Assembly (NCBI GenBank): GCA_000004695.1
Contig: CM000155.2
Span: 2,848,001-2,912,000, forward strand
DNA from: Dictyostelium discoideum
Lineage: Eukaryota
Length of the DNA stretch: 64,000 nucleotides
Direction: 5' to 3'
Made by a program: the position numbers and the translations under genes
Shown: positions 24,951 through 25,108 of the stretch, piece by piece
How positions within the stretch are numbered: the first letter of the stretch is position 1
How the letters are laid out: each line of letters opens with the position of its first letter
The notes under the pieces: generated by a model
The model's input: only the letters and a program-made list of their open reading frames with translations
Databases searched by the model: none
What the model was told of the DNA's origin: nothing

Positions 24951-25108
24951 TGTGTCCCATGCCAAAATTACCATATTAATTTCAGCAGCCATATTAATTT
25001 TGGCATGGGACTTATGTCTGCCAAAATTACCGTATTAATTTCAGCAGCCATATTAATTTCAGCATGCACATAGCTGCCAAAATTAATATGGTAATTTTGG
25101 CATGGAAA
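24951..25108. mobile_element. Foldback-type repeat: direct and inverted copies of an approximately 45-bp unit (ccaaaattaccatattaatttcagcagccatattaattttgg); thug-like palindromic element
   Basis: The unit occurs twice in direct orientation, then once inverted (gccaaaattaatatggtaattttggcatgg). A second arrangement of the same unit lies at 57130-57312. Small hairpin-forming palindromic elements (thug-S/T) are a known Dictyostelium repeat class; assignment by resemblance only. Confidence 0.45.

Follow-up and report, generated by a model that had tools for sequence, protein, structure and literature searches.

The stretch of DNA analysed here (the window) comprises 64,000 nucleotides of Dictyostelium discoideum (GenBank assembly GCA_000004695.1, contig CM000155.2, positions 2,848,001 to 2,912,000 of the forward strand), and exact protein look-ups of abcB1 and DDB_G0293454 match it to chromosome 6 of AX4. 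It contains two clusters of foldback repeats (locus 1 and locus 2; coordinates of all features are given in Table 1). Just inside each cluster lies a copy of a 738-bp segment S, detected by self-BLAST, the two copies (S1 and S2) being in direct orientation. Between S1 and S2 the assembly holds a 29.9-kb contig of host genes (c4), separated by N gaps from the contigs that carry locus 1 (c3) and locus 2 (c5). On both outer sides lie genes of a virus-like island, with capsid-like genes at 20959-24524 and a D5-like helicase gene at 57540-59582. We argue, with a probability of roughly 90%, that these foldback clusters represent the left and right terminal inverted repeats (TIRs) of one 1,564-bp copy of thug-S, a DNA transposon, inserted in a spacer of this island.

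The foldback repeats and the anatomy of the element

Locus 1 has two direct units of ~48 bp (24960-25007 and 25019-25066), 94% identical to each other; a partial unit of 28 nt in inverted orientation comes next (25075-25102). Locus 2 spans 57143-57322, with a direct (57147-57189), an inverted (57209-57256) and again a direct unit (57270-57317). These are the arrangements reported in a preliminary description of this DNA, made from its letters only; its coordinates were close, although those of locus 2 (57130-57312) were off. The building block of all units at both loci is a 17-bp subunit, CCATATTAATTTYRGCA, present in 11 copies with at most one mismatch in the 64 kb (five in locus 1, six in locus 2 and none elsewhere) and absent from 100 dinucleotide-preserving shuffles (0 expected). 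Repeats were located using self-BLAST with the dust low-complexity filter, as a default whole-window repeat search was swamped by AT-rich low-complexity families. Each locus had also been expected to fold into long hairpins, and single-strand folding bears this out, with z-scores of -10.5 for locus 1 and -13.9 for locus 2, and 0 of 200 shuffles as stable at either. The foldback repeats at both loci are real and far above chance.

Self-BLAST and pairwise alignment show that locus 1 is the reverse complement of locus 2 over ~210-245 bp, including ~55 bp that extend beyond the foldback itself (25106-25163 against 57077-57142, inverted). The left TIR is made up of the terminal 18 bp, five of the 17-bp subunits (at 24971, 24989, 25030 and 25048 on the forward strand and at 25075 on the reverse), a run of A, and a conserved 45-bp subterminal block (25119-25163). 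In the right TIR the subunits lie at 57156, 57174, 57281 and 57299 on the forward strand and at 57211 and 57229 on the reverse, and the difference from the left TIR is one extra 28-bp module of subunit plus spacer. When three left and two right ends were aligned, the terminal 18 bp, TGTCCCATGCCAAAATTA, were perfectly inverted between ends. The terminal 58-bp unit forms a hairpin with a 17-bp stem and a 24-nt loop, and in all copies examined the orientation of this loop is the same in absolute terms at the left and the right end, with no flip/flop. Further inward the ends are inverted again, except for the extra module of the right end. Because the asymmetry between left and right is conserved between copies, being kept in the copy L003 described below, we regard it as a feature of the family and not as decay.

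The borders of the element are marked by AATATG, which lies outside TGTCCCATGCC at the left and outside GGCATGGGACA at the right. At the local base composition, a 6-bp flank match of this kind would arise by chance at ~1e-3 per copy, as a rough estimate. Given the inverted ends and the matching outer flanks, we read the two loci as a single insertion with a 6-bp duplication, the interior of which is broken by the assembly. Whether removal of the element restores an open frame depends on the assumed length of the duplication, and the A-rich sequence codes for lysine in every frame, so this was not used as evidence.

The association of the repeats with a duplicated ORF (open reading frame) segment, already pointed out in the preliminary description, is explained by this anatomy, since S is the internal region of the element and encodes its thug ORF. 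In S1 this ORF is interrupted by an in-frame TAA at 25717-25719, where its paralogues have the lysine codon AAA. The ORF has no recognisable transposase domain, and Pfam gave no match of any kind for its 89-aa (amino acid) C-terminal part (25447-25716) or for the paralogue P0012. The chromosome 6 copy, at 1,564 bp, appears to be non-autonomous.

Table 1. Coordinates of the element, its parts and the contig placed between its ends (positions in the window)
Feature	Position	Strand	Remarks
Left target-site duplication	24947-24952		AATATG; 7 bp, AAATATG, when the element's terminal T/A is assigned to the flank
Left TIR	24953-25163	+	Inverted copy of the right end; folds at -63.3 kcal/mol
Internal segment S, copy S1 (contig c3)	25425-26162	+	Ends at the N gap 26168-26267
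Internal thug ORF	25447-25911	-	MIYSKNNK...RRVNN, ~154 codons; interrupted
Contig c4	26268-56129		Host genes, not part of the element; 29.9 kb, 100-N gaps on both sides
Internal segment S, copy S2 (contig c5)	56230-56968	+	Begins at the N gap 56130-56229
Right TIR	57077-57322	-	Six 17-bp subunits; folds at -81.7 kcal/mol
Hairpin A	57151-57250	+	35-nt arms 57151-57185 and 57216-57250, 97% complementary; 30-nt loop
Hairpin B, Rfam RF03716 mir-7131 precursor	57219-57307	+, matches both strands	Arms within 57209-57256 and 57270-57317
Right target-site duplication	57323-57328		AATATG, equal to the left flank

Further copies were sampled from other strains (L003, and L004 from GCA_054859355.1), and their left ends have the same architecture as that of the chromosome 6 copy. 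L003 holds a second complete copy, which is 1,980 bp long (L003 5061-7040) and flanked on both sides by GTTAAT. Its ORF is longer, is frameshifted and has a different N-terminal half, and this copy may represent a second subfamily. The L004 copy (5950-8414) is rearranged: its left end is normal, its interior holds foreign sequence, and part of a left end is present a second time as a fragment. As to their surroundings, a tRNA gene (L003 4061-4134) lies ~0.9 kb from the L003 copy, and the L004 copy adjoins long terminal repeat (LTR) retrotransposon genes with RVT and integrase domains.

Family identity and the mir-7131 hairpins

The thug-S family of D. discoideum was reportedly described by Glockner et al. 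in 2001. Scanned in full against Rfam at gathering thresholds, the window returned one family only, mir-7131 (RF03716), at the hairpin B of the right TIR, with scores of 96.1 and 94.0 bits on the two strands against a gathering score of 74. The better match is full-length (84 of 84 model positions, 96 bits). The same family was also matched in the right TIRs of L003 and of a near-identical strain (L002, introduced below); no mir-7131 match was found by Rfam at locus 1. MIR families of plants and animals were matched only at scores short of their gathering thresholds, and these matches were dismissed as generic for AT-rich hairpins.

Small RNAs published for D. discoideum can be placed on the element as well. 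The sequences of miRNA_can_D3-3p (AUUAAUUUCGGCAGCCAUAUU) and D3-5p (UAUGGCUGCUGAAAUUAAUGUGG) have been given by Meier et al. 2016 (PMC4894637). D3-3p is found exactly at 57160-57180 and D3-5p, with 22 of 23 positions, at 57223-57245, both within hairpin A and spaced by 63 nt as in the published loci; the Northern probe DM227 of the same authors matches the element at 22 of 23 positions. The one difference in D3-5p is an A in place of G at position 20, and the exact D3-3p of this copy carries CGG. Two papers assign these multicopy miRNA loci to thug-S, and according to Meier et al. 2016 (PMC4894637) a thug-S intron holds the miRNA. Our data fit this statement, because the AX4 gene models DDB_G0290953 and DDB_G0281529 start with MAAEINMVILAWDL, which is encoded in the end repeat, so that the hairpins fall in the annotated intron. 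Together with DDB_G0271172, these genes are paralogues of the ORF of the chromosome 6 copy (97-98% identical over the 49-84% of the query that is covered). DDB_G0290953, DDB_G0271172 and DDB_G0281529 lie on chromosomes 5, 2 and 3, respectively, which are the chromosomes of the published D3 loci, and this supports the assignment to the family.

Conserved ends and a conserved ORF are therefore found in multiple copies (the three paralogues, L003 and L004), and inverted ends are accompanied by target-site duplications, AATATG here and GTTAAT in L003. The element resembles thug-S in being multicopy in the same species, in its inverted ends, in a small gene model that contains an intron and has its start inside the end repeat, and in hairpins that carry the published thug-S small RNAs. 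The differences are not substantive: the chromosome 6 copy has a nonsense codon and one mismatch to D3-5p, lies nested within a virus-like island and is cut in two by the reference scaffold. Compared with the published miRNA_can_D3 loci (PMC4894637), the chromosome 6 locus lies outside those listed and is known here from sequence alone. The earlier guess of a thug-type element is thus borne out by the mir-7131 hairpin and by the thug-S small RNAs (Meier et al. 2016), and the feature is an already known transposon end together with a microRNA hairpin. Taken by itself the finding carries little weight: the repeat family has been described before, and the microRNA family is already curated. About 0.1% of the genome consists of thug elements (PMC5633606).

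Outside Dictyostelium, the closest likeness is to miniature inverted-repeat transposable elements (MITEs) and foldback (FB) elements, which share long ends made of short subrepeats in both orientations, a seemingly non-autonomous element, and transcripts predicted to fold into Dicer substrates. Plant MITE-derived miRNAs and Drosophila FB elements are examples of inverted ends giving rise to hairpin small RNAs. Drosophila FB elements have a 9-bp target duplication and kilobase-long ends of tandem repeats. The element described here differs from them in its 6-bp duplication and in ends of ~210-245 bp, lacks the defining features of FB elements, and has no sequence relationship to either example.

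How such an element might move and give rise to small RNAs can be sketched from its structure. The arrays of CCATATTAATTTYRGCA in both orientations are putative binding sites for a transposase that would be supplied in trans; the ORF is without a recognisable catalytic domain. Insertion would proceed through a staggered cut of 6 bp. The right end could give transcripts, by read-through or promoted by the element, and these could fold into hairpins of 35-48 bp that would be substrates of Dicer. DrnB and RbdB would then process the hairpins to small RNAs of ~21-23 nt, as experiments in the literature show for the family. Family small RNAs of ~21-23 nt from hairpins are lower in rbdB- cells and higher in agnA- cells (Meier et al. 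2016, PMC4894637). The 6-bp duplication and the grammar of the 17-bp subunits could help to identify the thug transposase. Since the thug family is without an identified transposase and this copy lies inside an island with several unannotated ORFs, one may also ask whether elements of the island type supply, or once supplied, an enzyme that recognises the 17-bp arrays, with thug-S as a satellite or hitch-hiker and not a cut-and-paste MITE. We consider this idea extremely doubtful; if it were true, thug-S riding on a virus-like element would be analogous to transpovirons and giant viruses.

Contig order and alternative explanations

Whether the two TIRs belong together depends on the order of the contigs in AX4. 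We compared the window with a gap-free assembly (GCA_054883475.1, from which L002 was taken) that is 99.3-99.99% identical to it over long collinear blocks. Window 63326-56230 corresponds to L002 1-7082, and window 26162-23543 to L002 6345-8963; the two matches overlap in one single copy of S. The element in L002 is thus continuous, with 1,564 bp from TGTCCCATGCC to GGCATGGGACA, AATATG on both sides and the order TIR, small interrupted ORF, TIR, and c4 is absent from between the two TIRs. In AX4, the N gaps lie exactly at the ends of the two copies of S.

The contig c4 is found elsewhere in the other strains. In GCA_054883475.1, the part of c4 on its right (window 41410-56129) is found without change of orientation at ~152-167 kb of the contig that also carries the element, its left end is extrapolated to lie ~20 kb past the end of the region matching c5, and its right end runs into a 507-aa gene and a FANCI-like gene, both of which lie outside the window. 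In the more divergent strain GCA_054859385.1, the order is abcB1, GH18, ABCG, ~14 kb, c4 and FANCI. Both strains, therefore, place c4 in unchanged orientation ~14-20 kb downstream of the ABCG gene found beyond window ~63.3 kb, and its right end continues into a gene of 505-507 aa and then into the FANCI-like gene. This is read most simply as an exchange of c4 and c5 in the AX4 scaffold, where c3 and c5 ought to be joined by an overlap in S. The two apparent loci and the duplication of the ORF are most likely an artefact of the gap-bounded c4 having been placed inside the element. The preliminary description was right to speak of two loci for the window as given, but the evidence points to the scaffold order as the cause. 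Two neighbouring contigs of AX4 chromosome 6 are apparently misordered, which splits one transposon and creates a false duplication, and this is relevant to small-RNA mapping, repeat mapping and synteny in the region.

Taken at face value, the order in the window would match two independent foldback (MITE-like) insertions 32 kb apart, each truncated at an assembly gap, and S1 and S2 do differ by 12% over 291 bp. This difference is confined to the first 291 bp of S2 (56230-56520, with an N at 56317), which are 88% identical to S1 25425-25715 with 34 substitutions and one gap; over the other 447 bp of S and the AT-rich spacer that comes after it, S1 and S2 are 100% identical. However, the divergent part lies at a contig end and is about equally distant from two close copies (its identity is 87-88% with L002 and L003 and 75% with L004, a divergent copy), whereas S1 is 100% identical to L002 over the stretch compared and 98.6% identical to L003. 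This pattern points to a low-quality contig end and not to a second genuine copy. Two insertions are also at odds with the same hexamer on the outer flanks, as for one insertion, with the single element of the near-identical strain, and with the continuation of the right end of c4 into genes outside the window, and we hold them to be very unlikely. A real, AX4-specific composite element of 32 kb, with about a dozen host genes captured between thug ends, would likewise conform to the scaffold order and to the presence of S beside both ends in direct orientation. But both of its junctions are N gaps, the orthologue of the c4 right end in two strains continues into other genes as described above, and the position and orientation of c4 downstream of c5 in both strains are as expected from a mere swap of two adjacent contigs, so that such a composite has, in our judgement, very little to recommend it.

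The single thug-S copy has also to be weighed against explanations that concern the nature of the repeats. They could be primarily host microRNA genes belonging to mir-7131, instead of pieces of a mobile element, as the Rfam match and the published small RNAs dependent on DrnB, RbdB and AgnA might suggest. The unit in which the hairpins lie is nevertheless multicopy, with target-site duplications outside its inverted ends and an ORF within, the mir-7131 precursor is formed by the right end only, and the papers themselves call the loci transposon-derived. We regard this explanation as very improbable, and the descriptions as microRNA gene and as transposon are compatible, not exclusive. The preliminary description had proposed instead that the foldbacks are terminal structures, that is, hairpin ends or inverted terminal repeats, of the D5-like virus-like island. 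They do lie within the island, linear viral and plasmid genomes are often hairpin-ended, and the terminal 58-bp unit, with its stem and loop, is itself a hairpin. In the contiguous assembly, however, the thug ORF lies between the two foldbacks, which are turned towards each other at a distance of 1.56 kb, with island genes outside both, so that they bound only this short unit in a mid-island intergenic spacer. They have their own 6-bp duplication, and the orientation of the terminal loop is fixed in the copies examined, unlike that of viral and plasmid termini. When eight island ORFs were compared by tblastn with L003 and L004, the two other copies sampled, no match was found within 5-6 kb of either, and the suggested co-occurrence of repeat copies with these ORFs therefore finds no echo there. 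We give the proposal next to no credence, and the assignment to thug-S, a characterised family unrelated to the D5-like ORFs, effectively removes its basis; the association of thug-S with the island is one of nested insertion.

Several points weigh against our preferred interpretation of a single thug-S copy. The AX4 scaffold itself puts 29.9 kb between the ends, and there is a slight chance that this is a real AX4-specific rearrangement. The label thug-S as opposed to thug-T rests on the small-RNA papers and not on a consensus alignment. The chromosome 6 copy is absent from the published list of D3 loci (chromosomes 2, 3 and 5), which is probably explained by its single mismatch to D3-5p. The target-site duplication is drawn from two complete copies only, and according to a review no thug transposase resembles known ones, for which reason the binding of subunits can only be proposed.

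The D5-like virus-like island

The virus-like island is a more interesting object than the foldbacks that it harbours. On one side of the element a minus-strand island gene has its start at ~24524, and on the other the helicase gene has its 3' end at 57540; the element occupies the spacer between them. The helicase gene (minus strand) encodes 615 aa and is one gene in GCA_054883475.1, while AX4 annotates it as two, DDB_G0293454 and DDB_G0293464. Its product matches Pfam DUF5906, an SF3/D5-type helicase region, with 30.8 bits against a threshold of 27.6. Apart from this match, searches of Pfam and PHROGs with the island ORFs and the thug ORF returned nothing, and a sequence search of the PDB with the helicase gave no match.

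On the other side of the element, the ORFs 22651-22307, 22286-21291 and 21195-20959 jointly correspond to one protein of ~520 aa. DDB_G0293426 (493 aa) belongs to the same 90% cluster as a 409-aa model of its C-terminal part, and a word-indexed search gave a single named relative, from Heterostelium album. A profile built from these two proteins finds 1,365 cluster representatives of ~450 aa; ten that were sampled belong to no Pfam family, and a sequence search of the PDB with the profile gave only four matches at chance level (E 0.03-0.3). AlphaFold run on a two-sequence alignment reached a pLDDT (predicted local distance difference test) of 28, and an alignment of 101 sequences from the search of representatives was needed to obtain a model with a pLDDT of 76 and a pTM (predicted template modelling score) of 0.72. 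The fold predicted for the protein is that of a double jelly-roll capsid protein. A minus-strand ORF of 134 aa (22755-23159) contains VYIHSNICSNGNDDILQEIY and resembles the N-terminal ~130 aa of Heterostelium album PPL_12645, the remainder of which is the capsid homologue; this ORF may be a second capsid gene, minor or penton-like.

The capsid-plus-helicase island (~19.6-24.9 kb and 57.3-61.1 kb) is absent from the orthologous GH18-ABCG interval of GCA_054859385.1 (L006 1-10000), and because of this absence it looks like a strain-polymorphic endogenous virus-like element. It is flanked by short inverted similarities of 82-87% (window 17909-19129 against 61136-61540), and a piece of ~205 bp (61793-61996) is found in three copies in the island-less strain, beside fragments of ABC2_membrane genes. 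These flanking similarities may be duplications of ABCG fragments that mark a rearrangement-prone interval.
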